A DNA stretch of 51,192 nt from a virus. Taxonomy: Duplodnaviria > Caudoviricetes. The notes beneath the pieces are model-generated. The model was given only the letters and a program-made list of their open reading frames with translations, was not told the origin of the DNA and searched no databases. The position numbers and the translations under genes are program-made. The stretch lies in IMG/VR virus record IMGVR_UViG_3300027863_000050, positions 1-51,192 of that record. The stretch is one strand, 5' to 3'. Below are positions 1 through 51,192 of the stretch, piece after piece. The stretch's first letter is position 1. Each line of letters begins with the position of its first letter.

Positions 1-893
1 CGATTATCGACCCCGTGTCGGAATTCGTGGTGTGCCGCGACGAAGCGGGCCGGTTGCGGTTCCCGTTTGGCGAGGAATCGTCTGATATAATCAGCAACGC
101 TGCGGGCGGCCTGTCGGGTGCGGTAGACGCAGCCTCGAAGGTCGGCGCAATCAACGGAGGGTTATGAGTATGAGCTTGCTAACCATGCTTGAGCAGGAGG
201 TCGGTGTTGTCGAAGACGACATCAAGGGCGTTGCGGCGCTCATCTGGCGCGACGTGAAGGCTGCCGCCAGCGAGGTCGAGACAATCGCCGTCGATGACTT
301 CAAGGCCGCTTTGCCCGCGTTTACCAAGGCAGTCAAGGATTACGCGCTGCAAATCGTCGGGCAGTTGGAGCAGGACCCGGTTTTTTCGGGCGCGCTTGGT
401 TCCTGGAAGTTCGGGATAGCCGCGGCGCGCTTGTGGGCGGCCGTGAAAGCTGGCATTCCGGGATTCGAGAATCTGGCCGTATCGTTCGGACAATTAACGG
501 TCGAAACTATCGTGCAGGATTCCGTGAAGTCGCTACTGGTCGGTGCGACCGCAAACCCTACTTCATCGTCGGCGAGTTCGCAGGCGGGTTCGTCGGCGGG
601 GTCCTCGGCGGCATCCTCAAAGGCCTAAAATGATGCGCTTTCTGCGATATATCGCGCTCGTGCTGGCGTTGTGGCCGTCGCTTTGTTGGGGGCAGACCAC
701 GGTAACGATTACCGGCACGTTGCTCGACAATTCGGGCAATCCGCTTTCGGGCGTCCAGGTAATCGAGCAGCCGATCTATCCGACGATGGTCAACGGCGCG
801 TTGGTCTCGCCGAACCCGGTGAGCACCTACACGAATTCATCCGGCGCGTTTTCGTTGGTCGCGGTCGGCGGGGTGTACGCGGCGCTGTATGTG
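1..893. repeat. Terminal direct repeat, copy 1 (circular overlap)
   Basis: 1-893 aligns without gaps to 50300-51192 (offset 50299) with about two dozen substitutions. Confidence 0.97.
164..628 (+). CDS. Hypothetical phage protein with Ser/Ala-rich C-terminus
   Basis: GGAGG RBS before ATG; the second copy (50463-50927) differs mostly at synonymous sites, supporting a real gene. Confidence 0.8.
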   Translation: MSMSLLTMLEQEVGVVEDDIKGVAALIWRDVKAAASEVETIAVDDFKAALPAFTKAVKDYALQIVGQLEQDPVFSGALGSWKFGIAAARLWAAVKAGIPGFENLAVSFGQLTVETIVQDSVKSLLVGATANPTSSSASSQAGSSAGSSAASSKA

Positions 894-7119: not shown

Positions 7120-8235
7120 ATGGAAAACGGAATCGGATTCGACCAGGACGAACTCGCCAGCGAATTGCTGGCATCGTTCTCCAAACTGCGGCTGGACCTC
7201 AAGGCCGCCGCATCAATGGGCCGCCGACAGGCCCGGTATGCCGTTAACACCTATTACGATGTGCAGCGGATACGCATTGCGACCGAACACCAGGTGCGCC
7301 AATGTGAGAAACGAAACGAGCCAACGAACCTGCTCAAATGGATCGCCGGTGTGACTTACGCCTTGGAATATCAGATTCGACGTGCGCTCGGCGCTTTCGC
7401 GGAGAACGCCGAGGTCGGACGCTGGGCGCTGGGGATTCTTGGAATCGGCCCGGTTCTGAGCGCTGGACTACTCGCACACATCGACATGAACCGCGCGCCG
7501 ACCGTCGGCCACATCTGGCGTTTTGCGGGATTGGACCCTAAGCAAAAGTGGATCGGTGCAAAAGCGGCCGAAGCGTTCGTTGCGCGGTTCCCGGAGGACA
7601 CGCCGCTGGAGGACATTATTGTCCGCGCTGTCGAAGTGATACATTGCCGACCTGAAACGCTCGTGATGCTGGCAAGAACCAACCCGCAAGGCAAGAAAAT
7701 CAAAATGACCCGCGAGACGGTGACGCGGGCTATCGCAAAGCGGCCGTGGAACGAGGGGCTGAAGACGCTCTGCTGGAAAATCGGCGAATCGTTCGTCAAG
7801 GTTTCGAACAAGCCGAACAGCCTATACGGACGCATATACAAGGAGCGCAAAACGCTTGAGTGGCAGCGCAATCTGGCAGGCGAAAATGCGGAGTATGCGA
7901 AGCACGTGCTGACCGTAAAGCGGTTCGGCCTTGACACGATGGCGCGCGCCTGGTACAGCGGCGAGATTTCCGCGCCGCTGGTTGAGAAAGCGTTGCGCGA
8001 TGGAAGTCCGCTGCCGGAGAATTTGCGCGAAGCGAGCGAAAAAGCTGGCGGGCTGGTACCGATGTTGCCGCCGGCACATATTCATGCGCGGGCGACCCGT
8101 TACACGGTCAAGCTGTTCTTGTCACATTGGCACGAGGTCGCCTACCGCGCGCACTACCATAAGGAACCGCCGAAGCCGTACGTGATCGACCATCTAAAAC
8201 ACAGGGATTTTATCGGCGCGGATGAGGCGTCGTAA
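7120..8235 (+). CDS. tasA: Nop-domain / IS110-like RNA-binding protein without nuclease domain (TasA-like)
   Basis: Helical N-terminus YYDVQRIRI, GIGPVLSAGLLAHID and IWRFAGLDP Nop/IS110 motifs, PWNEGLKTLCW, HIHARATRYTVKLFL; no N-terminal RuvC DEDD or HNH; AAGGAGGT RBS; flanked by arrays. Confidence 0.82.
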   Translation: MENGIGFDQDELASELLASFSKLRLDLKAAASMGRRQARYAVNTYYDVQRIRIATEHQVRQCEKRNEPTNLLKWIAGVTYALEYQIRRALGAFAENAEVGRWALGILGIGPVLSAGLLAHIDMNRAPTVGHIWRFAGLDPKQKWIGAKAAEAFVARFPEDTPLEDIIVRAVEVIHCRPETLVMLARTNPQGKKIKMTRETVTRAIAKRPWNEGLKTLCWKIGESFVKVSNKPNSLYGRIYKERKTLEWQRNLAGENAEYAKHVLTVKRFGLDTMARAWYSGEISAPLVEKALRDGSPLPENLREASEKAGGLVPMLPPAHIHARATRYTVKLFLSHWHEVAYRAHYHKEPPKPYVIDHLKHRDFIGADEAS

Positions 8236-16848: not shown

Positions 16849-17612
16849 TGTTCGGATCCTCCTCTGGCCGCATTGAGAAGTGTTTCACGTTGTTCCGCCG
16901 TGAGTTCCAGCGTTGTATCGAGCGCGATTTGGTATTGCCATTCGGGCGTAGCCCGTAGGGCTAACGTGAATCGCTGTTCGGGGGTCAGGCCTGAAGACGT
17001 GTCCGAGGCGATTGCGCCGCACCAATAGGGTGCGGAGTTTTGGGCCAGCTCGAATCGCTGGGTCGGGGTTAGCTCTGGGTTGTTGCAGGCTAGTTCGCCT
17101 CGCCAATACGGGTGACCTTGGCGTGCCAGGTCGACGCGTTGCTCGAGGGTGAGGTCTGGCGCTTGGCAGGCAATCCTTCCCATCCAGTAAGGGTCAGATT
17201 GGCGTGCCAACTCGAGGCGCTCTTCTGCGCTTAGGCCTGGCGCTTGGTAGGCAATCATTCCTCGCCAGTAAGGGTCAGATTGGCGTGCCAAGTCGACGCG
17301 CTCTCGTGGCGTGAGTTTTGGTGAGTAGCAGACGACTTCTCCCCGCAGCTCTGGTGTTATGCGATCTGGGCAGTCTGGAATGACCCTAACGCGCCGGAAG
17401 CAGACTACGCCTTCGGGCGCCTTAGCTCCGGTTGGCTGTTCGCAATCCAGATATACCAGCAGTTTGCCCGCTTTAGCACCAGAGAGGCCGCCGGTGACGG
17501 CGACGTAGGCGCCGTTTCCAGGTACGATGTTCCATTTGCCGGACAGGTCGTATTTGTACTCGCCGTTTAGCGACGTGCCGTCGGGTTGGAGCAACTTACA
17601 GCCGACCATCAT
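16845..17612 (-). CDS. Helical tandem-repeat protein
   Basis: About six ~27-aa repeats L(T/S)xE(E/Q)RxxLAxQSxPYWxGxIA. Confidence 0.75.
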   Translation of the reverse strand: MMVGCKLLQPDGTSLNGEYKYDLSGKWNIVPGNGAYVAVTGGLSGAKAGKLLVYLDCEQPTGAKAPEGVVCFRRVRVIPDCPDRITPELRGEVVCYSPKLTPRERVDLARQSDPYWRGMIAYQAPGLSAEERLELARQSDPYWMGRIACQAPDLTLEQRVDLARQGHPYWRGELACNNPELTPTQRFELAQNSAPYWCGAIASDTSSGLTPEQRFTLALRATPEWQYQIALDTTLELTAEQRETLLNAARGGSEQ

Positions 17613-17841
17613 GGTTAATCCTCCTCTCGATATTGTCGAGTCGTTTTTCGAGGTTATCGTGCAGCTCGAAGATGCTTATCGCTAGCGAATCGATGGCGCC
17701 AACTAGCGCTCCGTAGAGCATGCACGCCTCTCCGATCATTTGGCCGCTCATGGTGGTTGCGTATCCGAACACGAAACCCCCAATGAAACACCACGCCAAA
17801 TCGATCAACATGCGTCGTCGCAGTGGCCGCATATCCGTCAT
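17596..17841 (-). CDS. Small membrane protein
   Basis: Two hydrophobic segments plus coiled-coil tail; GGAGG RBS. Confidence 0.6.
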   Translation of the reverse strand: MTDMRPLRRRMLIDLAWCFIGGFVFGYATTMSGQMIGEACMLYGALVGAIDSLAISIFELHDNLEKRLDNIERRINHDGRL

Positions 17842-17925
17842 AAGGCCTCCATTACGGCCGCCAGCGCCAGTCGAGCGCGACGATGACGATAGCGGCCGCG
17901 ATGATGTATCCGAGAATCGCGGCGG

Positions 17926-18111
17926 TCATATGTAATCGTCCTTTCGCACGGCGGGATTGCCGGCGGCCATCCTCGCGAGTGCAAGGCGGACCAGGTCCGT
18001 GATGAAATCCTGGATGGTCTTGTTCTGTTGTACCGCGAACAACTTGAGCGCCCGCCGCTCTTCCGGCGAGAGCTCCAAGTACGGACGGTAAATGGTATAA
18101 TTTCGTTTCAT
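17926..18111 (-). CDS. Ribbon-helix-helix (CopG/Arc-like) DNA-binding protein
   Basis: YLELSPEERRALKLFAVQQNKTIQDFITDLV pattern; AGGAG RBS. Confidence 0.6.
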   Translation of the reverse strand: MKRNYTIYRPYLELSPEERRALKLFAVQQNKTIQDFITDLVRLALARMAAGNPAVRKDDYI

Positions 18112-18144
18112 TGTGTCTCCTGTATCTCGGCTCGGACGGCCGGG

Positions 18145-18483
18145 CTATCCGATTCCTACCTGGAGGTCTACGCGGCCGCTGTCGTAGACGATCGCGTAGA
18201 GTAAGCCAACGAAACCGCCTAGCACGCCAGGGAAATAAGCGCGCGCCTCGTCGAGGTCGAGCAGGCGCGCCGACTCGACACGTCCTGATGGCCACGTGAC
18301 GGTCATCGGCTGGCCGCGTAGCGTCGCCTCGTGGCGGATCCATGCGACGCACCGGGCGATCTCGCGCCCTGCGCGCTCGATTCCCTCCGGCTCTCGCTCC
18401 CATAGATCGATGATCGCGCGATCGGCTGCCTCTCGCTCCGCGTCCGTGAGTGATGCACGGCTCAGTATGTCGTTTATGTTCAT
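18145..18483 (-). CDS. Hypothetical protein
   Basis: AGGAGG RBS directly after a repeated hairpin. Confidence 0.65.
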   Translation of the reverse strand: MNINDILSRASLTDAEREAADRAIIDLWEREPEGIERAGREIARCVAWIRHEATLRGQPMTVTWPSGRVESARLLDLDEARAYFPGVLGGFVGLLYAIVYDSGRVDLQVGIG

Positions 18484-18535
18484 GTTCGTAGCCTCCTGCC
18501 CGGCCCGGTCGTCCGGGCCGGGTTAGATTAGTTCG

Positions 18536-19108
18536 TTAGCTCCGGGGTTCAGGGACGTCGGCGATGCCGTCGCGGAAAGCGGCCCAGATCGGGTGTTGGT
18601 TCTTGAAATAGACCCGCGGGATTTGTGTGACGCCGTAGCGGCCGAGGATTTGGCGCAGAGCGTCAATGTCGCCATCGTGGGGGATCGTGACGTGCCGCTC
18701 GTAGGCCTGCCGGGCGCACGCCGCACCGAGCGCCCGGACGTCTGCTAGGAGCCGTTGGCGCGTCGACTGCGAGAGCCGCTCGTACTCATGGATGTACTCC
18801 GGATGCGTGTATTCGATCAGGACTGACTCGATTCCGGCCCGGAATGAGTCGAGGATCATCAGATGGTCGGGATCGATCAGTCCAAACTCCTTGCGGAGCT
18901 CCGTTAGGAGTTCGCGATAATCGTTCACGGTGCCGTCCGGCGGGTAGTCTGGACCGCCGCGTCGTGCGCATGCCTCGCCGTGAGCGCAGGCGACCGTCAT
19001 CCAGGTCTCCTGGCGATCTGGATCGTCGTCGTATCTGGCGGGCGTCACCGGCTCGCGGAGCCGTTTCAGCCGATCCCGTGTGTGCTTACCGTAGCGTCCC
19101 ATCGTCAT
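18536..19108 (-). CDS. Hypothetical protein
   Basis: 190 aa; N-terminal ~25 aa identical to the upstream gene. Confidence 0.6.
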   Translation of the reverse strand: MTMGRYGKHTRDRLKRLREPVTPARYDDDPDRQETWMTVACAHGEACARRGGPDYPPDGTVNDYRELLTELRKEFGLIDPDHLMILDSFRAGIESVLIEYTHPEYIHEYERLSQSTRQRLLADVRALGAACARQAYERHVTIPHDGDIDALRQILGRYGVTQIPRVYFKNQHPIWAAFRDGIADVPEPRS

Positions 19109-19461
19109 GGTCTCCCCTGTTTAGACTCGTAGCAGTCCCCGACGCAGGCCATCACGCTCACGACCGCGCTCCCCCCTCCCCGGCGCGTCAGGCTGGCGCG
19201 GTGATAGAGACAGATCTCCCGAAAGACACTGGGGGGGAGCGAGTACCGGCTGGAGAGATACATGGCCGCAAGCTCGATGGATGGCGCTATCATCTCGCTG
19301 CGCTGTCCGCAGCTGTCTGCGTAGAACGCATGATAGTGCGGTTGTGGCGCGTGTCCCACTGTCGCTACTCCCGCCGCGCCAAGGGCATCGTATCTGGCGG
19401 GCGTCACCGGCTCGCGGAGCCGTTTCAGCCGATCCCGTGTGTGCTTACCGTAGCGTCCCAT
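19029..19461. repeat. 74-bp exact direct repeat
   Basis: 19029-19102 = 19388-19461, encoding MGRYGKHTRDRLKRLREPVTPARY. Confidence 0.92.
19105..19461 (-). CDS. Hypothetical protein
   Basis: AGGAGG RBS after hairpin; shares N-terminus with next gene. Confidence 0.55.
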   Translation of the reverse strand: MGRYGKHTRDRLKRLREPVTPARYDALGAAGVATVGHAPQPHYHAFYADSCGQRSEMIAPSIELAAMYLSSRYSLPPSVFREICLYHRASLTRRGGGSAVVSVMACVGDCYESKQGRP

Positions 19462-19525
19462 TTTTTTTGCCTCCTACCCCGGCCCGGCTAACCGGGCCGG
19501 GGGTTTGGATTTGTGTTCTGCGTTT

Positions 19526-19924
19526 CTAGTTGGTGTTGTGGCCAAGGCCGGATTCGAGAATTCCGTTTCGTACGTAAGAGCGTACGTAGCGCTTTCGTTT
19601 TGGATGCTGAAGGTAGCCTTCTAGCCTTCTATGCGTAGCGCGTCCCGTATAAATAGGTCGAATGTTTCCGTCAATCGAAACCGTGGTGCTTCGCGCGCGC
19701 ATATTGCCTACAAACATCGGCAAGGGTTCGCCATTGGTTCCGAAGGTTCCGTATGCGACATGGTGACCGGCAAGGTTCGCATGGTCCAAGGCTAAATCTT
19801 CTGGCGTCGCGTCGTTCGCGGGATACCAACTGCTTTCCCAGCCGCAACATTCGCAAGCGGCTCGAATCTCCCATGGCGCATTCTCGGTTCGATGGAAATT
19901 GCGATATTGTTCCACGGTTTTCAT
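19526..19924 (-). CDS. Hypothetical protein with CECC motif
   Basis: AGGAGG RBS after hairpin. Confidence 0.65.
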   Translation of the reverse strand: MKTVEQYRNFHRTENAPWEIRAACECCGWESSWYPANDATPEDLALDHANLAGHHVAYGTFGTNGEPLPMFVGNMRARSTTVSIDGNIRPIYTGRATHRRLEGYLQHPKRKRYVRSYVRNGILESGLGHNTN

Positions 19925-19977
19925 ATCATCCTCCTATCCCGGCCCGGTCTCCCGGGCCGGGGTTGTGGTGTGTTCCG

Positions 19978-20217
19978 CTATTCGTCCGCCTCCGCCTCAG
20001 GCTCGCGCCACGTGTGCCAGCCGGTCCAGACGTCGTCGTCACTGCCTACGGCGACGGCCCCCTGGGCGGCGTTGACCAGATCCGCTTCGCTGTAGCACAG
20101 GCCGAGCCGGAGCTCGCCGCCGTGGCCCCTCGGTCCCTCCAGCCAGTAGACGCCAGGGCCGCTGTAGTCGATCTCGATCTCACTAAATGCCTGCATTTTT
20201 CGCTCACTCATCGCCAT
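19978..20217 (-). CDS. Hypothetical acidic protein
   Basis: AGGAGG RBS after hairpin. Confidence 0.65.
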   Translation of the reverse strand: MAMSERKMQAFSEIEIDYSGPGVYWLEGPRGHGGELRLGLCYSEADLVNAAQGAVAVGSDDDVWTGWHTWREPEAEADE

Positions 20218-20391
20218 CTCTCTGTCCTCCTATCTCCCGGCCCGGTCTCCGGGCCGGGGTTGTGTGTTTCCGCTACTCCTAGTGCCTGCTGCGCCTCAGC
20301 CGCGGCCTGCGCGTGATCGGGTCCGGCTCGATGAGCACGTCCACTACAATCATGATGACAATGAATGCAAACAAAACCACTGCCATGTCAC

Positions 20392-20679
20392 CTACCTACC
20401 CTTCGCTATCTCCACGACAGCGCAGATTTTGTCGATCGTTCGGTTTTCGTGGAGGTGATAGTTGGCAGTTTTGGCGCCGGCATAGGTCCTCGGCTCCCTG
20501 ATGGTGCCGTCAGCCAGGACCTCGAGAATCGCGCCGCGGCCGGCGTTCCAGTGCCTTCCGCCATTTAGGCTGATCAGCTCCACGTAGATCCGTTCTTTCC
20601 CTGGTACGCGCGCCCAAGCGTGCGCAGACTGGACGCCCTCGATTTTCGATATCTCTTCGCTTAGCTTTTCCAGGTCCAT
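20392..20679 (-). CDS. Hypothetical protein
   Basis: GGAGGTG RBS before MDLEKL. Confidence 0.6.
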   Translation of the reverse strand: MDLEKLSEEISKIEGVQSAHAWARVPGKERIYVELISLNGGRHWNAGRGAILEVLADGTIREPRTYAGAKTANYHLHENRTIDKICAVVEIAKGR

Positions 20680-20701
20680 CGCTTCACCTCCGTCCGCTTT
20701 C

Positions 20702-20968
20702 TCACCGCGCCTCGACAAAGCGCGTCAGATCACCTAGCGCGCGAAGGGACAGACGACGCCGGACCCTGTTCTGGCGTGCCGCCTCGACGCACGCGTCTCG
20801 CAGATCGCGCAGTTTCAGGACTGGCCTGCGGTCGCGGGCGGGCGCTAGCATTACCGTCGACCAGGCGATCCACCTTATGTCGCCGCGGCCGAGGCTCCTG
20901 CACGCCGAGTGAAAGAGCGCGACGGCTCGATCGTCGTAGGCTCCGTTCCAACCGTCCTCGATTATCAT
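20702..20968 (-). CDS. Hypothetical protein (first leftward gene)
   Basis: AGGAGGAG RBS. Confidence 0.55.
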   Translation of the reverse strand: MIIEDGWNGAYDDRAVALFHSACRSLGRGDIRWIAWSTVMLAPARDRRPVLKLRDLRDACVEAARQNRVRRRLSLRALGDLTRFVEAR

Positions 20969-21021
20969 GTCTCCTCCTATCTGAGCCCAGCCTATCTGGG
21001 CTATCTAGGCTATAATAGGTA

Positions 21022-21998
21022 GCACACATCATGCCAACCACGGCCGCGCTCAGGTACTCGGCCGCAATCGACCTCACATCTCCCAAAAAACCTAGTAAAT
21101 ACAAGGATCTCCGCGCGGCCCTAGCCGCGCGGATAGAAAGAGAAGAAAAAACAAAGTATACGAAATGGGGTAAATCTACCTAACGTTCGTTAGATTGCGT
21201 CGAAATTCTTCAACGAAATCAACCACTTAGCGACACTACCCCAAATGGGTTACTCGATACACCATTTGGGTTAACTTACCAACCGTTCGGTAGGTATTTG
21301 GTGGGTGCAGTAAACTTACTGCGGCGAAGCTGCAAAATTTGCCGGCAAAATTTGCCGAGGCTGCAAAAATTGCCGATTTGGCGCAAGAAGTATGCCAACG
21401 GCCGGAAAGGCTGGCACAAGGCTTGCTAATAGCAATTCTGCGGCCGAAAATCTGGCACAGAGCTTGCTATGTGTTGCAAAATGCCACATGTGGCGCCACA
21501 TGTGGCAAAGTGCCACAAAGCGAACATACAGCGAAAATGCGAGCGCGGTTTGGCACAGAGCTTGCTGCGGCCGAAAATCTGGCATGATGTTTGCTACGGC
21601 CGCGACTTGGCATGATGTTTGCTACGCGCGCGGATCTATATATATGATGCGGCCGCGCCTCGACCTCGAGGCGAATACGGACAAAATCACGGACAAACGC
21701 GGCCTCATGCGGCCGCAAACCCTTGATTTTACGCGGTTTTTTCCTCGAGAACGTCTGAATGCTAATCAGACGGTCCGCGGCGCGCCTGGTACGTATCTTG
21801 CAATAGCACGCGCGATGCCATGGCCCGCTGGCACAGCTTTTGCTAGCTGGCCGTGACCATGGCCCGCTCGCAAGAATTGTGCCAACCAGGCTACCATGAC
21901 CCGCTCGCAAGAATTGTGCCAGGCCTCAAGGAATGCTTTGTGCTATTGCAAACTCCATGCCAAGCCAGGATTGCGGCCGTCATGCAAGAAGCGTGCCA
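21022..21998. promoter_or_regulatory. Cluster of sigma54 (-24/-12) consensus motifs
   Basis: TGG(C/T)A(C/T)-N5-TTGC on + at 21412, 21453, 21551, 21580, 21608, 21787, 21829 and on - at 21383, 21870, 21907, 21948, 21984; weaker - copies at 21022 and 21806. Confidence 0.8.
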
Positions 21999-22166
21999 CA
22001 AAAGTCCGAGCCGGGGTGGGTGGCCGCGCGCGCTCGAAAAATCACGCTGGGCCAACGCAGCCTCCGCCTTCCCCCTAGCGTATCTACGCAATGGTATTGC
22101 GTATATACGGATGTTGTGGTAGGGGTGGTGGGGATGCGGCCCGGAATTTGCGACGGGGCAAGTACT

Positions 22167-22430
22167 ATGACACGGACGGTAGATCTTTGGGTGACGCTGA
22201 GGCTTCATGCAGTGATCCACAAGGAAGACGACGGTTACCGGGTAGAGGTGCCTGCGCTACCTTGCTGCGCGGCGCAAGGTGCAACCCTCGGCGAGCTGTT
22301 CCTGAATCTGGACGAGATGATCATGAAGCATAGGTCGCATTTCCCGGGTGGATTGGTATTCGCTACAATGCCGGCGAGCTGGCCATGCTTCCAAGGGGCT
22401 CGCTGTGAAAACGATGCGGCTAAGCGATGA
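22167..22430 (+). CDS. HicB-like antitoxin-family protein
   Basis: AVIHKEDDGYRVEVPALPCCAAQGATLGEL motif. Confidence 0.7.
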   Translation: MTRTVDLWVTLRLHAVIHKEDDGYRVEVPALPCCAAQGATLGELFLNLDEMIMKHRSHFPGGLVFATMPASWPCFQGARCENDAAKR

Positions 22431-22467
22431 CCGGCATGGCGGTTAGGGTGGACGCGGAGCAGACGTT

Positions 22468-22656
22468 ATGGACAAAACGGTAAGGCTTTTGATTACGTTG
22501 AAGCTCGACGCGGTGATCCACGGCGAAGACGGCGGCTGGTGGGCCGAAGTGCCCGCGATACCTGGTTGCGCGAGCCAAGGCGCGACGCTTAATGAGCTGC
22601 TCGCGAACTTGGACCAGGCAATTAAGGGATGTTTAGGTTGCGAGGCCAAGGACTAA
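22468..22656 (+). CDS. HicB-like antitoxin-family protein
   Basis: AVIHGEDGGWWAEVPAIPGCASQGATLNELLANLDQAI motif. Confidence 0.82.
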   Translation: MDKTVRLLITLKLDAVIHGEDGGWWAEVPAIPGCASQGATLNELLANLDQAIKGCLGCEAKD

Positions 22657-22826
22657 GATGAGTAATTTTTTTCGCGAGCTCTATGGGTTGAATGCGCTTA
22701 TCGACCAGTTTGTGGGCGATCCCGCGCCACGGCCGGGCGACTTTGACGATACGGACTGGCGGCGGGGGTACGACCTGCCGGATGATCCGTACGAGTATCT
22801 CAATCAACTAGATGGGGTGACCAAGT

Positions 22827-23159
22827 ATGCCAGATGACGAGTACGTAACAGCGATTATTCCTGCGGAGCCCGGTTGGAGAATAGTTAAGCCGCTTAAAGG
22901 CGGGAGCGGGAAAGTCGTCGGGCTTTCAGACGAGACGCTTGTTGTGGCCTGGTGTGTTAGAGTTACGATAAGCGGCCGCACTGGGGAAGAGTTTTCGTTT
23001 GCACGACCTATCGCAGCTACGCTAGCTTTGCGGTCAAGCGATGACCTGGTTCTGCGAGACCCAAAAGGGAACTTTCATGTTCCGCTGGTTCTAGGGGGAA
23101 TCTCATACGAAAGTGTTATCAACCATTTTAACTTAGAGAGGGTGAAATGCGGCGACTAA
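22827..23159 (+). CDS. Hypothetical protein
   Basis: 110-aa ORF, IIPAEPGWR N-terminus. Confidence 0.55.
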   Translation: MPDDEYVTAIIPAEPGWRIVKPLKGGSGKVVGLSDETLVVAWCVRVTISGRTGEEFSFARPIAATLALRSSDDLVLRDPKGNFHVPLVLGGISYESVINHFNLERVKCGD

Positions 23160-23695
23160 TTGGACTGATTCTATTGGTGGGCCTATTGGCGGCTGGAACA
23201 GCGCGGGCGCAAAGTGTGGGCAATGCGAGTGCGGTTGGGACGCCTGGTTCGGCAGTTCCGCCTCAGGGGCTGTTTGTAGGTGGTACGGACGGCACGAATT
23301 TTCGGCCCCTATCGGTTAATCCGACCGGGGCACTGAACCTTAATACATCCGATCCCTGCCAAAACGGCGCGTATGCAAAATCGTCGATTCCGCTTGCTTT
23401 AACGGCCAGTTCTCAGTTAGTGACGGCTTCTGGTTCGACGAGCATTTTTGTTTGCGGTTTTGCGGCCACGGCGGCGGGCACCTCGCCGACGTTGCAATTC
23501 GTGTATGGGACTGGCACAACGTGCGGAACGGGCACGGTCAACTTGACCGGCGCGTTTGCACCCACGTCGGGGACGGAACTTCGAGCGGGCGGCGCGATAA
23601 CTCAATTTTCGGTTCCGTCCGGGAACAATCTTTGCGCGATTGTGGGCGGCACGTCGCCTTCAATCCAGGGTTTCCTGACGTATGTCCAGCGGTAA
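23147..23695 (+). CDS. Signal-peptide-bearing beta-rich protein
   Basis: MRRLIGLILLVGLLAAGTARA signal; Gly/Thr/Ser-rich with four Cys. Confidence 0.7.
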   Translation: MRRLIGLILLVGLLAAGTARAQSVGNASAVGTPGSAVPPQGLFVGGTDGTNFRPLSVNPTGALNLNTSDPCQNGAYAKSSIPLALTASSQLVTASGSTSIFVCGFAATAAGTSPTLQFVYGTGTTCGTGTVNLTGAFAPTSGTELRAGGAITQFSVPSGNNLCAIVGGTSPSIQGFLTYVQR

Positions 23696-25723: not shown

Positions 25724-26185
25724 ATGGACAATCTCGCTGGAAAGGACTTGAAACCACCCACGGGTACCGAATCGGCGGCGGTCTCCCCGACCGAGACGAA
25801 ATCCTCAGCCAAGCGGGCATCTCTGAACGAGAAAGAAATTCTTGATGCGCTCGCACTTTGGGAAGTAGGCCTGAAACATAAGAGTGCGCGTGCAGCCGAC
25901 CAGGAGTTTGGTCGAGTCCATGAGCGGATGCTCGAAATCGGCCGATCTATCAGCAATTGGGTCGCGCAGTTTGATTCGCAGCGCTGTGCTGCCTGCCATC
26001 GGCCGTTTTCAGAAGGCGTCCGGCCGAAGACGACCATCCCGCACTACGACTACACTAGCGAGCGCTACATCAATTGGTACGCCTGTAGCGCGACCTGCGC
26101 GGCCAAGCTGATCGACCGCCAGCGCGAAGATGAGGCGAAACGCCATGGGTTGCCGGCGAGCATGTTGAAACCTGCGCGCGCATGA
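25724..26185 (+). CDS. Hypothetical zinc-binding protein upstream of terL
   Basis: GAGGTG RBS; CAAC...CSATC; ATGA-coupled to terminase. Confidence 0.6.
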   Translation: MDNLAGKDLKPPTGTESAAVSPTETKSSAKRASLNEKEILDALALWEVGLKHKSARAADQEFGRVHERMLEIGRSISNWVAQFDSQRCAACHRPFSEGVRPKTTIPHYDYTSERYINWYACSATCAAKLIDRQREDEAKRHGLPASMLKPARA

Positions 26186-27981
26186 TCGATTTCGCCAAAA
26201 TACCGTCGCTCGCCAAGGTCTGTTACAAGGTCAATGACCGCCTGGACCCGCATAAGCTGGTCCCGTTCGTGATTAACTCTGCGCAGCGCGATTTTCTAAA
26301 GCTGTGCGCTCAGCTTCAGGAACAGAAAGCGCTGGTCTGGATCATTGCAATCAAGCCGCGCCGCGTTGGGTTGAGCCGCATTGTGTCCGCCGTTGGCGTG
26401 ACGATGGCGTTTTCGTATAACGGCCTTGCGGGCCGTGTCATGGCGCACCTTGGCGACACCCTTGAGGAGATCATGCGCGCGATGCGCTTGATGGCGCGCG
26501 GGTTGCCTGGGCACAAAAATCTTTCCAAGGATTTCGCCATTGAGATCGGAAAATCGGTTATCTCCGGCTCGAAAGCTCTGGCGGTTGGCACATCGCGCGG
26601 TACTGCGGCGCAATTTCTTCATCTGACCGAAGCGGCTCACTACCCGCTCAAATCCCCGATGACTGCGATTTTGCCGGTTGTTCCTCGTTCGCTGGACACG
26701 TTCATCGCGATTGAATCGACGGCCAATCCGGACCGGCGTGGCCGTGCGTTTCGGGAATACTGGGATAATGCACGCTGGGTGGACGAAAACAGGAAGGATC
26801 GGCTTTTTGTTCGCTATTTCTGCCCGTGGACCAAAGACCCGTATGCATGGGCGGACGCGAGCCTGGCCAAGGACGCGCCGATAGATGATGAAGAGCGCCT
26901 ATTGATGGCGGCGGGTGTTGAGCGCGAGCGTATCGCATGGCGACGTTCCGAGATCGCAAGCCGCTATCAGGGCCGACCTGAGCTGTTCGAGATGGAGAAT
27001 CCGTCCAGTCCGGACGCGGCGTTCCTGATTTCGGACGTTCCCGCGTTTTCGAATGATGAGAAGGCGTGGGCGCTCCGGACGGTTGTCGATCCGCTCATGC
27101 GCGGCACGTTCCGGCCGACCACGAACCATCCTGACAGCCTGGTGCGGCTGTATCGCGATCCAAACGGACCGTGGCGCATCTACGAGGAACGCAAGCGCAA
27201 TTGCGAGTACTACATCGGGGTTGATGCGGCGCGCGGGCGCGACGTTACCGATCCTGGTGCAAAGGAAGAATCAGCAACCGACTACGCCGCAATTGTGGTG
27301 GTGAACGGCTCGACTTCGGCCGTAGCCGCGGTTCTCGAAGAGCGCTGGCTTCCGGATGAAATTGCGCGCCAGACGGCGCTTGCGGGCCGCTATTATTGTT
27401 GCCGCGAAATTTCCGACTATCACTACGCACTGGTTAATGTCGAGGTTACCGGCGGTTACGGCGGCGAAGTCCAAATCCGTCTAAAAAAAGACGAGCACTA
27501 TCCGATCCATCGATTCTTGCGGTGGAAGGGCCGCGACGACCGGGTTCACGAGCGGCCGGGCCAGAACATCGGTTGGGTATCCACGGTTTTTACAAACGAG
27601 CTGAAATTGACCGTTTTCCGCATGGCGCTCAGCGCTCATCAATTCCTGGTGCGGGACCGCAGGCTCGCCGAACAAATCCAGACCGCATCGGAAACCAGCC
27701 TGGGTGACGCGGAGGTTGAACGTGGTCACGATGATGTCCTCGACGCGACGATGTTTGCGTGGATTGCCCGCGATATGCAGCGGCCGCGCTACGTTTCAAC
27801 CGAAGATGCAGTTGAATCGGCGGTTGCGCCGCGTATGATCAGCATCCACGAAACGGGCGCTTGGAGCGGCCGGCAGCTTTGGGAGTTTGTCGAGAAGCGG
27901 CTGAAAACTCGCGAGCGAGTTGATCATCTCCACGAGATGCTCGATTATATCAACAATCAGGGTGCGGGCTATGGCGGCTGA
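26182..27981 (+). CDS. terL: Terminase large subunit
   Basis: KPRRVGLS Walker A, LHLTE Walker B, IESTAN coupling motif, YYIGVDAA and HDDVLDA nuclease motifs. Confidence 0.92.
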   Translation: MIDFAKIPSLAKVCYKVNDRLDPHKLVPFVINSAQRDFLKLCAQLQEQKALVWIIAIKPRRVGLSRIVSAVGVTMAFSYNGLAGRVMAHLGDTLEEIMRAMRLMARGLPGHKNLSKDFAIEIGKSVISGSKALAVGTSRGTAAQFLHLTEAAHYPLKSPMTAILPVVPRSLDTFIAIESTANPDRRGRAFREYWDNARWVDENRKDRLFVRYFCPWTKDPYAWADASLAKDAPIDDEERLLMAAGVERERIAWRRSEIASRYQGRPELFEMENPSSPDAAFLISDVPAFSNDEKAWALRTVVDPLMRGTFRPTTNHPDSLVRLYRDPNGPWRIYEERKRNCEYYIGVDAARGRDVTDPGAKEESATDYAAIVVVNGSTSAVAAVLEERWLPDEIARQTALAGRYYCCREISDYHYALVNVEVTGGYGGEVQIRLKKDEHYPIHRFLRWKGRDDRVHERPGQNIGWVSTVFTNELKLTVFRMALSAHQFLVRDRRLAEQIQTASETSLGDAEVERGHDDVLDATMFAWIARDMQRPRYVSTEDAVESAVAPRMISIHETGAWSGRQLWEFVEKRLKTRERVDHLHEMLDYINNQGAGYGG

Positions 27982-47282: not shown

Positions 47283-47541
47283 GGTTGACCTAACTGAACG
47301 CGCGGGATACCAGCCGCAGCCCGCACAATCCGATTCGGAAAAGCTGCGGCTCGTCGTCATAGACCAACACGAAGCGACCGTTGAATGTACGGCGGCAACG
47401 CGAATGAACACGCAGGCAACCCAACGCGCACAGAGTTCGATGGATGTGCTTGTGAGTCAAATTGGAGCGCTTATCCAAAAGATGATCGAACTGTGCGAGC
47501 GGATGGATACGGTCGCGGATTTATTGCGGAAGCGTCCATGA
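47275..47541 (+). CDS. Hypothetical coiled-coil protein
   Basis: Coupled to neighbours. Confidence 0.5.
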   Translation: MGKVDLTERAGYQPQPAQSDSEKLRLVVIDQHEATVECTAATRMNTQATQRAQSSMDVLVSQIGALIQKMIELCERMDTVADLLRKRP

Positions 47542-48335
47542 GAGTCTGGGTGTTCGGCGGTACGGCAGGAATCGGAAAAGCGGTCGCGCAAATCTATGCG
47601 GCGCGTGGAGAAGACGTGCTATGTCTTGCGCGGCGTGCATCGGATATTGCGGGGGTGCGCAGCGAGCGGCTTGACCTTGACCAACCTGGGTCAATGGTAG
47701 GCAACGCAGTTGAGCGGCTCTTGCTGGCTGAAGGTCTCGACCCCGACGACCGCGAGTTACGCGACTCGGTTTTGAGCGGTGAAACGCAGATTAGCTCGTT
47801 CCGCAAGCGCTGGTTTTTGTCAAAACGTGGAGCTCCTGACCTTGCAATCGTAAGCAGCGGAATCGGTGCTTACATTCGGCAAGACCTATGGCGGGACGAC
47901 TGGTGGACAGATAGCAGAGGTGCGCGGCACGCAGGCATCAACACCATCTTTCGTGTGAATGCTATTTCGCGGATGTGGGCGGCCAACGAGCTTATTCGTG
48001 CAATGCGCCGTAAGCGATCGGGCAAAGTGGTCCTGATAGGTTCGCGATGCTCTACTCGCGGAGCACACGCATTGGAGGTCTATGCAGCGTCGCATGCGGC
48101 CTTACGAGGTTATGTGCTGAGCGCTTGTCGCCATCCGGCAAAGCGTGGCGTTACAGTTGGGTTGGTCGAAGTTGGTTGGACATTGACTCCAATGACAGCG
48201 AATCTCGCACCCCATGTAAAGTCCGCAATTGAGCGCGAACTTGGAAAGATGATGACAGCCGAGCAGGCAGCAGAACAAATTGTCAGTGCGTGCGAACGCA
48301 TAACGGCGGGTGAAATCCTGGAGATTGGAAAGTGA
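47538..48335 (+). CDS. Short-chain dehydrogenase/reductase (SDR) family protein
   Basis: GGTAGIGKAVA Rossmann motif, FRVN, GKVVLIGS, YAASH, GWTLTPM. Confidence 0.85.
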   Translation: MRVWVFGGTAGIGKAVAQIYAARGEDVLCLARRASDIAGVRSERLDLDQPGSMVGNAVERLLLAEGLDPDDRELRDSVLSGETQISSFRKRWFLSKRGAPDLAIVSSGIGAYIRQDLWRDDWWTDSRGARHAGINTIFRVNAISRMWAANELIRAMRRKRSGKVVLIGSRCSTRGAHALEVYAASHAALRGYVLSACRHPAKRGVTVGLVEVGWTLTPMTANLAPHVKSAIERELGKMMTAEQAAEQIVSACERITAGEILEIGK

Positions 48336-49308: not shown

Positions 49309-49842
49309 ATGGACTTCGACACTTGTTTGGGGATTCTCTCGACAATCGAAGGTGGCTGGACCGTGGATTCGGGCGGCCCGACCTACCGCGGTGTGACTCA
49401 GGAAACCTACGACGTTTGGCGGCGCAGGCACGCGCTTCCGGGCCGTCCGGTCCGCGAGATGACCGATGCGGAAATGCGGGCCATCTACTACGAGAACTAC
49501 TGGCTTCCGCTTCATTGCGGCGCGCTACCTGACGGCTGGGCCGTGTTCCTGTTCGTCCAGGCGGTCAACCTGCCATGGGGGGACGCAGTATTGATCATGC
49601 AAGGTGCGTTGATGTACGAAGGCGCATATACGGGCGCGATTGATGGAGCGATCGGGCCGATGACGATAGGCGCGGCGCGTTCGAAGCCCGCGGCGGTATT
49701 CACGGCTATCCAGGCTTGTATCGGCCACTACGCGATCAATTCTCCGCCTAACGAGCAGCGAGGGCTGATTGTTGGACGATTGGGCAAGCTCAAGGCAGCA
49801 ATCGAGAGATTAGGGTCTGCGGGGGCGATCGATGGGTCATGA
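49309..49842 (+). CDS. Glycoside hydrolase family 108 endolysin
   Basis: IEGGW...DSGGPTYRGVTQ, AIYYENYW, IDGAIGPMT. Confidence 0.9.
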   Translation: MDFDTCLGILSTIEGGWTVDSGGPTYRGVTQETYDVWRRRHALPGRPVREMTDAEMRAIYYENYWLPLHCGALPDGWAVFLFVQAVNLPWGDAVLIMQGALMYEGAYTGAIDGAIGPMTIGAARSKPAAVFTAIQACIGHYAINSPPNEQRGLIVGRLGKLKAAIERLGSAGAIDGS

Positions 49843-50169: not shown

Positions 50170-50466
50170 ATGGGCGTCAATGGGCTATCAGTGGTAATGC
50201 TGCTGTCCGGCTGCGGACCCACGATAACCACTATGAACGTGCAAACGCATCTTACGCAGGCGGGACAATGCGAAGTGGTGCTGGCAAAACCAGGTATTCC
50301 GATTATCGACCCCGTGTCGGAATTCGTGGTGTGCCGCGACGAAGCGGGCCGGTTGCGGTTCCCGTTTGGCGAGGAATCGTCTGATATAATCAGCAACGCT
50401 GCGGGCGGCCTGTCGGGTGCGGTAGATGCAGCCTCGAAGGTCGGCGCAATCAACGGAGGGTTATGA
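50170..50466 (+). CDS. Putative lipoprotein
   Basis: LSVVMLLSGC lipobox-like motif; start uncertain. Confidence 0.5.
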   Translation: MGVNGLSVVMLLSGCGPTITTMNVQTHLTQAGQCEVVLAKPGIPIIDPVSEFVVCRDEAGRLRFPFGEESSDIISNAAGGLSGAVDAASKVGAINGGL

Positions 50467-51192
50467 GTATGAGCTTGCTAACCATGCTTGAGCAGGAGGT
50501 CGGTGTTGTCGAAGACGACATCAAGGGCGTCGCGGCGCTTATTTGGCGCGACGTGAAGGCTGCGGCCAGCGAGGTCGAGGCAATCGCCGTCGATGACTTC
50601 AAGGCCGCTTTGCCCGCGTTTACCAAGGCGGTCAAGGATTACGCGCTGCAAATCGTCCAGGAATTGGAGCAGGACCCGGTTTTTTCGGGCGCGCTTGGTT
50701 CCTGGAAGTTCGGGATAGCCGCGGCGCGCTTGTGGGCGGCCGTGAAGGCTGGCATTCCGGGGTTCGAGAATCTGGCCGTATCGTTCGGACAATCAACGGT
50801 TGAAACCATCGTGCAGGATTCCGTGAAGTCGCTACTGGTCGGTGTGACCGCAAACCCTACTTCATCGTCGGCGAGTTCGCAGGCGGGTTCGTCGGCGGGG
50901 TCCTCGGCGGCATCCTCAAAGGCATGAAATGATGCGCTTTCTGCGATATATCGCGCTCGTGCTGGCGTTGTGGCCGTCGCTTTGTTGGGGGCAGACCACG
51001 GTAACGATTACCGGCACGTTGCTCGACAACTCGGGCAATCCGCTTTCGGGCGTCCAGGTAATCGAGCAGCCGATCTATCCGACGATGGTCAGCGGCGCGT
51101 TGGTCTCGCCGAACCCGGTGAGCACCTACACGAATTCATCCGGCGCGTTTTCGTTGGTCGCGGTAGGTGGGGTGTACGCGGCGCTGTATGTG
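50300..51192. repeat. Terminal direct repeat, copy 2
   Basis: Matches 1-893, including a second copy of the 154-aa gene (50463-50927). Confidence 0.97.

Follow-up and report, generated by a model that had tools for sequence, protein, structure and literature searches.

The Caudoviricetes record IMGVR_UViG_3300027863_000050 (Duplodnaviria), whose full 51,192 nucleotides are referred to here as the window, carries a dense array of twelve short sites on both strands at positions 21383-21998, within its only divergent control region. The sites are very probably binding sites of the sigma-54 (RpoN) type, and we tentatively interpret the array as a set of host RpoN-holoenzyme sites forming an activator-gated, two-way cluster of tandem promoters for the late genes. 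To our knowledge, no bacterial sigma factor other than sigma-54 depends on an ATP-driven activator to start transcription. Accounts of sigma-54 mostly concern nitrogen, flagellar and stress genes and not phage development, and bacterial promoters of this -24/-12 class, such as glnAp2, nifH and pspA, are as far as we know single or at most paired. The passages of the literature drawn on here give the compiled consensus as YTGGCA/TTGCT (PMC11997794) and describe a closed complex which is stable and needs an ATP-dependent activator, adding that activators without a DNA-binding domain can fire any closed complex (PMC3844500).

The pattern TGGYAYNNNNNTTGC (TGGYAY-N5-TTGC) has 13 exact matches across the window, compared with a mean of 0.44 and a maximum of 2 in dinucleotide-preserving shuffles, none of which (0 of 100) reached 13. 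Twelve of these matches are packed into the 616 bases of 21383-21998, seven on the plus and five on the minus strand; the thirteenth, at 8054, lies inside a gene. The original prediction, made from the sequence alone, had described twelve such 15-mers with exact GG-N10-GC spacing in about 620 bp and had suggested a comparison with shuffled sequence; the sequences and coordinates that it quoted are correct, and the comparison bears it out. Its statement that the inner bases vary and the outer elements are kept also stands, as 9 distinct pentamers occur among the 12 sites and the -24 and -12 elements are constant. Positions that the pattern does not impose show preferences as well, namely a pyrimidine before TGG (11 of 12), a purine after TGGCAY (12 of 12) and A or T after TTGC (9 of 12). 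Like bacterial sigma-54 promoters, the sites thus have GG and GC exactly 10 bp apart in YTGGCAY(R)-N4-TTGCW. They are unlike them in number and arrangement: 12-14 sites share about 620-980 bases, occupy both strands and mostly stand face to face, and the window has no enhancer-binding protein gene or recognised enhancer.

On the plus strand the exact sites lie at 21412-21426, 21453-21467, 21551-21565, 21580-21594 (29 bp past the preceding one), 21608-21622 (a further 28 bp on, and followed by an AT-rich stretch), 21787-21801 (a TGGTAC variant) and 21829-21843, with the first rightward gene beginning about 320 nt downstream of the last of these. The leftward sites are found at 21383-21397, upstream of every plus-strand site, and at 21870-21884, 21907-21921, 21948-21962 and 21984-21998. 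Some of the sites are contained in duplicated units of 29-32 nt that are 66-97% alike; the 29-nt units around the sites at 21870 and 21907, for instance, are 97% identical. The two weaker copies in the original prediction are recovered by a one-mismatch scan on the minus strand, where each keeps the GG-N10-GC spacing: one, at 21022-21036, precedes the start codon of the first leftward gene by 54 nt, and the other lies at 21806-21820. All seven plus-strand sites are to the left of four of the five minus-strand sites, so that 11 of the 12 stand face to face and most converge, as had been predicted.

The array lies in a divergent control region of about 1.2 kb (20969-22166), the single divergent junction of the genome, between a leftward operon and the rightward late operon. 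This stretch, which the original prediction had called non-coding, is so by its codon-position GC: the open reading frames (ORFs) within 21000-22090 have flat GC1/GC2/GC3 values of about 0.54/0.58/0.55, against about 0.65/0.47/0.70 in the flanking genes. Its GC content falls to 0.525, the minimum of the window, tied with one bin at 46-47 kb. Searches of 20500-22600 gave no tRNA and just two chance-level Rfam matches, and a DNA search of the control gap against cultured phages gave no match. A sigma-70 scan of the gap returned two 9-of-12 matches, each overlapping a sigma-54-type site. Both operons must have their promoters in this gap, and as it has no good sigma-70 match, the sigma-54-type sites are themselves candidates for these promoters.

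The same arrangement recurs in other viruses. IMG/VR was scanned for three sites spaced 10-40 bases apart, a sample that may be biased by scan order, and at least 120 stretches were found with the N5 spacing, compared with 7 for the reversed pattern, 15 for an N6 and 2 for an N4 spacing. The matches listed comprise 120 loci with 126 arrays and 646 sites, and the counts given below for listed loci, arrays and sites refer to these. A pyrimidine precedes TGG in 83% of the listed sites, a purine follows TGGCAY in 98%, and A or T follows TTGC in 95%. The inner bases are diverse in 109 of the 126 listed arrays, and in just 3 are all spacings multiples of 3. The listed loci range from 28 to 64% GC and fall into 32 groups with no blastp link between them; many are related, the largest group alone joining 84 of the 120, and the counts are therefore not independent events. 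The window proteins have a single weak blastp match of 67 residues to the 120 listed loci, and hhalign comparison of the putative small terminase (TerS) of the largest group with the window gene upstream of the terminase large subunit (TerL) gave them as unrelated (probability 0.3%). The original prediction had advised looking for the cluster in related phages; the nearest complete relative, discussed below, lacks it, and the support came from the many stretches in phages that are not related to this one.

In cellular genomes (596 Gb), the same three-site scan gave 95 stretches, of which 80 were examined, containing 88 arrays. All spacings are multiples of 3 in 50 of these, which were rejected as viral-type arrays because tandem repeats in coding sequence would look like this; preferences at the flanks are weak, at 56% and 45%. 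Since the cellular hits are largely of this period-3 kind with weak flank preferences, the arrays are, as judged from sequence, characteristic of viruses and bound to the exact sigma-54 geometry. Viral-like arrays are nonetheless seen in a few of the cellular hits, and one contig of a Sphingobacteriales metagenome-assembled genome is 87-88% identical in protein to two of the viral loci (L033 and L109). Sigma-54 itself (PF04552) is encoded in all five of the cellular genomes with arrays of the non-coding type and in 4 of 14 control genomes. The exact spacing, the extended consensus at positions not imposed by the search, the recurrence in unrelated phages at N5 and hardly at N4 or N6, and the unrelated TerS candidates strongly support the assignment to sigma-54 that the original prediction had made.

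The position of the arrays in other phages is described here with the limits that the ORF calls in these loci are crude and that the counts include many related contigs. Among the 126 listed arrays, 46 lie in a divergent junction, 13 between co-directional and 4 between convergent genes, 17 in an ORF of at least 100 aa, and 46 at the edge of the locus. Divergent junctions thus hold 46 of the 63 listed arrays that could be placed between genes, compared with 117 of the 773 junctions overall in the same loci. Of the 16 listed one-way arrays in divergent gaps, 13 are nearer to the gene they point to. A related test, in which the downstream gene was co-oriented in 40 of 52 cases, was discarded, as any divergent gap satisfies it automatically. 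In ten genomes that are at least 90% complete and have a full listing of their sites, 64 of the 69 sites fall in one array. TerL (phrog_2) was matched in 19 of 26 array records, and the array coordinates are listed for 18 of them; the array and TerL are separated by 0.96-7.06 kb in 17 of the 18 and by at most 2.4 kb in 12, and in the last record (G002) the distance is 1.9 kb provided that the record is circular. Seven of these 18 records belong outside the large linked group, and the array is found near TerL in at least 8 unlinked lineages, and a link of the arrays to packaging may exist on this basis.

For most of the genes that come first after an array in another phage, no function is known. 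Among the listed loci, the commonest co-oriented ones encode a TerS-like protein of 127 aa (with TerL behind it), an M15 endolysin, and a GP88-family protein. An unrelated phage of 64% GC (G047) has ten plus-strand sites between a minus-strand gene and a plus-strand operon that starts 247 bp further on, includes a tail-fibre gene and has TerL 6.2 kb downstream. The preference for divergent junctions, the bias toward the nearer gene, the late and packaging genes downstream and the layout of this last genome fit promoters. Two further layouts were seen. One 147.5-kb record (G020, locus L043) has 34 exact sites, 27 of them within 6.5 kb at the end of the locus and in several arrays, a number far above the single array found elsewhere. 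In two related contigs of about 10-12 kb, L111 (59-277 and 11621-11839) and L085/G046 (14-28 and 10213-10417), the arrays form inward-pointing inverted terminal repeats, a layout as in small linear genomes with promoters located at their ends.

The array appears to be an acquisition of this lineage, as far as relatives can be compared. In IMG/VR and the JGI metagenome set, the relatives of the window phage amount to one 10.8-kb contig, which ends 1.6 kb short of the array. A profile search identified the nearest complete relative (G048, 55 kb), whose TerL is 57% and whose capsid protein is 83% identical, with synteny from window position 23682 onward; among cultured phages, neither the window TerL nor that of the marine group has a close relative, all matches being below 60% identity. 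This relative has no array and one chance site in its whole genome. Its late genes, in the same order as in the window, begin at a divergent gap of about 140 bp, and because they start from this array-less gap, the array is, by this sequence comparison, a lineage-specific gain that occupies the promoter slot of the late operon. The gap of the relative contains a 15-nt perfect palindrome (L233, 6201-6215), made of the -24 hexamer and its complement and situated just before a start codon; it may be fortuitous, or may point to a phage regulator that recognises this hexamer. The window sequence is present in two hot-spring metagenome runs, and one soil and one rhizosphere run contain short contigs that are 80-99% similar to it. 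In a contig from one run (X2), 18 letters stand in place of 21522-21590, which removes the site at 21551 and most of that at 21580, and the replacement joined to the next -12 element rebuilds one full site; in a contig from another (X3), 40 bases are missing between the 97%-identical units at 21870 and 21907. Copy number thus drifts between strains and the motif is kept.

The motif, its statistics, its position and its recurrence being established, we infer from them the binding of sigma-54, the starts of transcription, the activator and the timing in the following scheme. The plus-strand sites would start a long rightward late transcript that runs through small genes, terminase, portal, capsid, tail and lysis genes, and the minus-strand sites would start the leftward operon of small genes. 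The holoenzyme would sit on them as a silent closed complex until an ATP-driven activator remodels it; such silence would give a tight off state, which would suit late and lysis genes, and the many copies of the site would raise both the capture of scarce holoenzyme and the rate of firing. Because the phage encodes no canonical enhancer-binding protein, the activator would be either a host protein or a phage protein that escaped recognition. A six-frame search of the window at E<=1 gave no match to the activator domain Sigma54_activat (PF00158), in agreement with the original prediction, and none to Sigma54_DBD (PF04552). A GAFTGA-like motif in 49309-49842 was set aside as chance, since it sits in the GH108 endolysin.

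Phages that use parts of such a scheme are known. P2/186-type phages have divergent late promoters beside the terminase and portal genes, which are single, depend on sigma-70 and are switched on by the Ogr/Delta zinc-finger proteins; they resemble the window in having silent two-way promoters next to packaging genes that await an activator, and differ in that the window sites are of the sigma-54 type and multiplied. In T7 (A1-A3), T5 and the terminal repeat of SPO1, tandem early sigma-70 or sigma-A promoters are activator-free and lie about 100 bp or more apart; what they have in common with the window is the stacking of host-polymerase promoters in one control region. Pseudomonas phage YuA requires sigma-54 as well as sigma-70, according to PMC10914365. 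Its record (NC_010116) annotates three promoters with a '-24/-12 consensus' in structural genes, with high promoter-trap activity. YuA is a precedent for promoters of this class in phage late genes, but its promoters are dispersed and single, compared with the 12-site array of the window; no array is present in its genome, and the three promoters do not match the strict pattern on the annotated strand even at one mismatch. Full-text literature searches, with subscription journals and supplements outside their scope, found no description of sigma-54 site arrays in phages.

Several observations weigh against a promoter cluster. The layout is awkward for simple divergent promoters, as the transcripts would cross over about 600 bases and their 5' leaders would be 300 to more than 900 nt long. 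The 42 listed arrays with sites on both strands are face to face in 23 cases, as in the window, evenly interleaved in 11 and back to back in only 8. The spacing of same-strand sites peaks at 26-29 bp (150 of 296 listed pairs), and neighbouring listed sites are 18-22 bp apart when convergent and mostly 23-25 bp when divergent. Sites as close as 18-22 bp (convergent) or 26-29 bp (same strand) cannot all fire at once; the length of the sigma-54 holoenzyme footprint is about that of the 26-29 bp packing. The concentration of 64 of 69 sites into one array per genome, in the ten near-complete genomes, is also not what one site per operon would look like. The position statistics are themselves open to objection, coming from crude ORF calls and related contigs with 17 of the 126 arrays in an ORF and 46 at an edge, and divergent gaps are also the places that best tolerate extra DNA. 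Finally, PF00158 was found in none of 47 array-bearing viral records at E<=0.001, 11 of which are at least 90% complete, and a strict Walker A motif (G-x4-G-K-[S/T]) occurs in no window ORF of at least 60 aa. The number of sites, their footprint-like packing, the frequent face-to-face layout and the missing phage activator are thus left unexplained by a promoter cluster, and for this reason a sink for the host factor, a structural role in cis and a site for a phage protein all stay alive.

The original prediction had favoured a sponge for host RpoN-polymerase, or loading sites linked to genome entry or packaging. As a sink acting in trans, which we consider unlikely, the array would trap host sigma-54 or its holoenzyme in dead-end closed complexes, the more so after genome replication, and would thereby shut the host sigma-54 regulon or free core polymerase, with transcription from the sites being irrelevant. 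Dense, high-quality sites at spacings of 26-29 and 18-22 bp suit binding over firing, no activator gene is seen in the window or in the 47 array records, and each genome has a single array; the array was gained here and is absent in the relative, as expected of an accessory device for host takeover, and its copy number varies between strains with the motif constant. The Salmonella chromosome has about 70 sigma-54 sites, 58% of them intragenic, according to the passages of PMC3844500 used here, a number that 12 sites per phage copy would exceed after modest replication. Some titration by a replicating phage therefore seems likely, whatever the primary role of the array. A sink, however, needs no fixed place, yet 46 of the 63 placeable arrays occupy divergent gaps, 17 of the 18 with a placed TerL are within 1-7 kb of it, and 13 of the 16 one-way arrays are nearer to the gene they point to. 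If the sites were decoys only, the window gap would have no good promoter for either operon, and the literature searches found no benefit to a phage from depletion of sigma-54. A role in cis, most simply as promoters, fits better than a sponge. Orphan and intragenic sigma-54 sites of Salmonella, E. coli and Vibrio are comparable in that their role may exceed the start of an operon, but they are single and scattered over a 5-Mb chromosome; going by the count in those same passages, the window packs one sixth as many into 0.6 kb of a phage genome of 50 kb.

The sites could also be read by a DNA-binding protein of the phage, as operators, small-terminase pac or cos boxes or origin iterons, in which case the likeness to sigma-54 sites would be coincidence or mimicry; this we regard as rather improbable. 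Cos and pac sites and origin repeats are often found near terminase genes, and like cosB or pac boxes and iterons the array is a single group of short repeats per genome close to packaging genes. The gap of the window also holds other repeats, palindromes and an AT-rich stretch (21636-21648), which comes after five plus-strand sites in an array with sites on both strands; GCGGCCG is enriched in it, the palindrome in the gap of the relative derives from the same -24 hexamer, and several contigs end in arrays, with L085 and L111 carrying them as inverted terminal repeats. Contig ends in repeats are, however, an expected artefact of assembly, and the array of the window does not adjoin the gene upstream of TerL but lies 3.7 kb from it, and 7 kb from the primase-helicase gene. 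Phage operators, iterons and pac boxes are normally lineage-specific, whereas an identical bipartite motif with the same spacing and flank preferences, which is the universal sigma-54 consensus, is found in 32 listed protein-unlinked groups of 28-64% GC. A phage-specific binding protein is unlikely because these groups share no protein with the window beyond one weak match, and because the TerS candidates are unrelated. A structural element in cis, with bound host sigma-54 holoenzyme serving it as an accessory factor, seems to us the least probable of these alternatives. It might mark the point where the packaging and late module begins or insulate it, aid the assembly of terminase or replication proteins, or prime an origin by convergent transcription into the AT-rich spacer. 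The closeness of the array to TerL in at least 8 unlinked lineages would agree with this, as would the face-to-face layout in the window and in the marine group, with an AT-rich and hairpin-rich spacer. On the other side, the sequence shows no termini and no origin at the array, the promoter cluster is simpler, and the literature searches gave no precedent; we too know of none for structural use of a bound sigma-54 holoenzyme.

The suggestion of the original prediction that the array lies at a physical genome end is not supported. The two ends of the window (1-893 and 50300-51192, 893 bases each) repeat each other at 97.4% identity (23 mismatches), from which the genome is about 50.3 kb long and was assembled as a circle or in permuted form across two strain variants; IMG/VR classes the record as 'linear' despite this repeat. 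The array is at least about 21 kb from either end of the record, and one contig of a further run (X1) covers 20300-23300 unbroken, as an assembled contig and not as reads.

Other repeats and structures surround the sites in the control gap. A 20-nt unit with a GCAAAAWTTGCC-type partial palindrome is directly repeated, in three copies, at 21325-21375 and is a candidate site for a regulator or enhancer. Amid the plus-strand sites, a 23-nt inverted repeat (21472-21517) that encloses two perfect 12-nt palindromes in tandem (21483-21506) is a candidate regulator site. The spacer that separates the two clusters of sites (21634-21745, plus strand), with an AT-rich start, two hairpins and a T6 run, folds better than its shuffles (z -2.7) and may be a leader or a short RNA. 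Downstream of the minus-strand site at 21383, the structure-rich stretch 21040-21372 (minus strand, fold z -3.9) is possibly the leader of the leftward operon. A palindrome with 14-nt arms (22079-22109), which lies 81-125 nt upstream, that is to the right, of the minus-strand site at 21984, could be an enhancer or operator. Of the 58 copies of GCGGCCG in the window, 10 lie in about 940 bases at 21041-21979, often 5-13 nt upstream of a -24 element; this heptamer is not in the logo of the arrays from other phages, and its enrichment is either a phage-specific feature or a remnant of the duplication of units.

To the left of the control gap, the plus strand encodes RecT, YqaJ exonuclease, an IS110-like transposase and a primase-helicase between 3.5 and 16.5 kb. 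The transposase, at 7120-8235 (phrog_4285, 4e-41; Pfam Transposase_20, 1.8e-5), lies within this recombination and replication module and could be the integration enzyme of the phage or an inserted element; no further integrase was seen in the window. The sole leftward operon (16845-20968), at which the minus-strand sites point, consists of small genes that matched no Pfam or PHROG family, among them one (16845-17612) for a 255-aa protein without a family match, in which a unit of about 24 residues is repeated in tandem about five times. Gaps between the genes of this operon hold two near-identical GC hairpins of 11 bp (19477-19502 and 20235-20259); each has a T-rich tail on the plus strand, and they look like terminators for the wrong strand. 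The rightward operon opens with a HicB/UPF0150-like gene (22167-22333), which has a paralogue at 22468-22656; no HicA-like partner was recognised. TerL (26182-27981) follows 4.2 kb downstream of the array in the orientation of the plus-strand sites, and then come, on the same strand, the portal (from 29134), the major capsid protein (from 34001), tail-sized ORFs and the GH108 endolysin (from 49309). A short-chain dehydrogenase/FabG-like gene (47385-48335, plus strand) stands amid the tail and lysis genes and is a possible auxiliary metabolic gene.

A broader proposal, which we regard as speculative and doubtful, is that many unrelated phages share a device not described before, the dense sigma-54 'landing pad'. 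Phages without an enhancer-binding protein of their own would load several host RpoN holoenzymes, in most cases at a single locus where the packaging and late module begins, and these holoenzymes would be fired late by a phage factor outside the AAA+ family or by a host activator triggered by infection; alternatively, the silent complexes themselves would be functional, as a sink or as an accessory of packaging or replication. If the arrays do bind sigma-54, a sizeable set of uncultivated phages, represented by at least 120 IMG/VR stretches and 32 protein-unlinked groups, would have converged on one solution, a tight block of sigma-54 sites, usually beside late or packaging genes and with no recognisable activator. 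This would raise the questions of what fires sigma-54 during infection and whether phages deplete the sigma-54 pool of their hosts. The arrays would also be natural, compact multi-site sigma-54 cassettes for synthetic biology, and in metagenomic phages they could serve to mark late control regions and rpoN-bearing hosts from the sequence alone.

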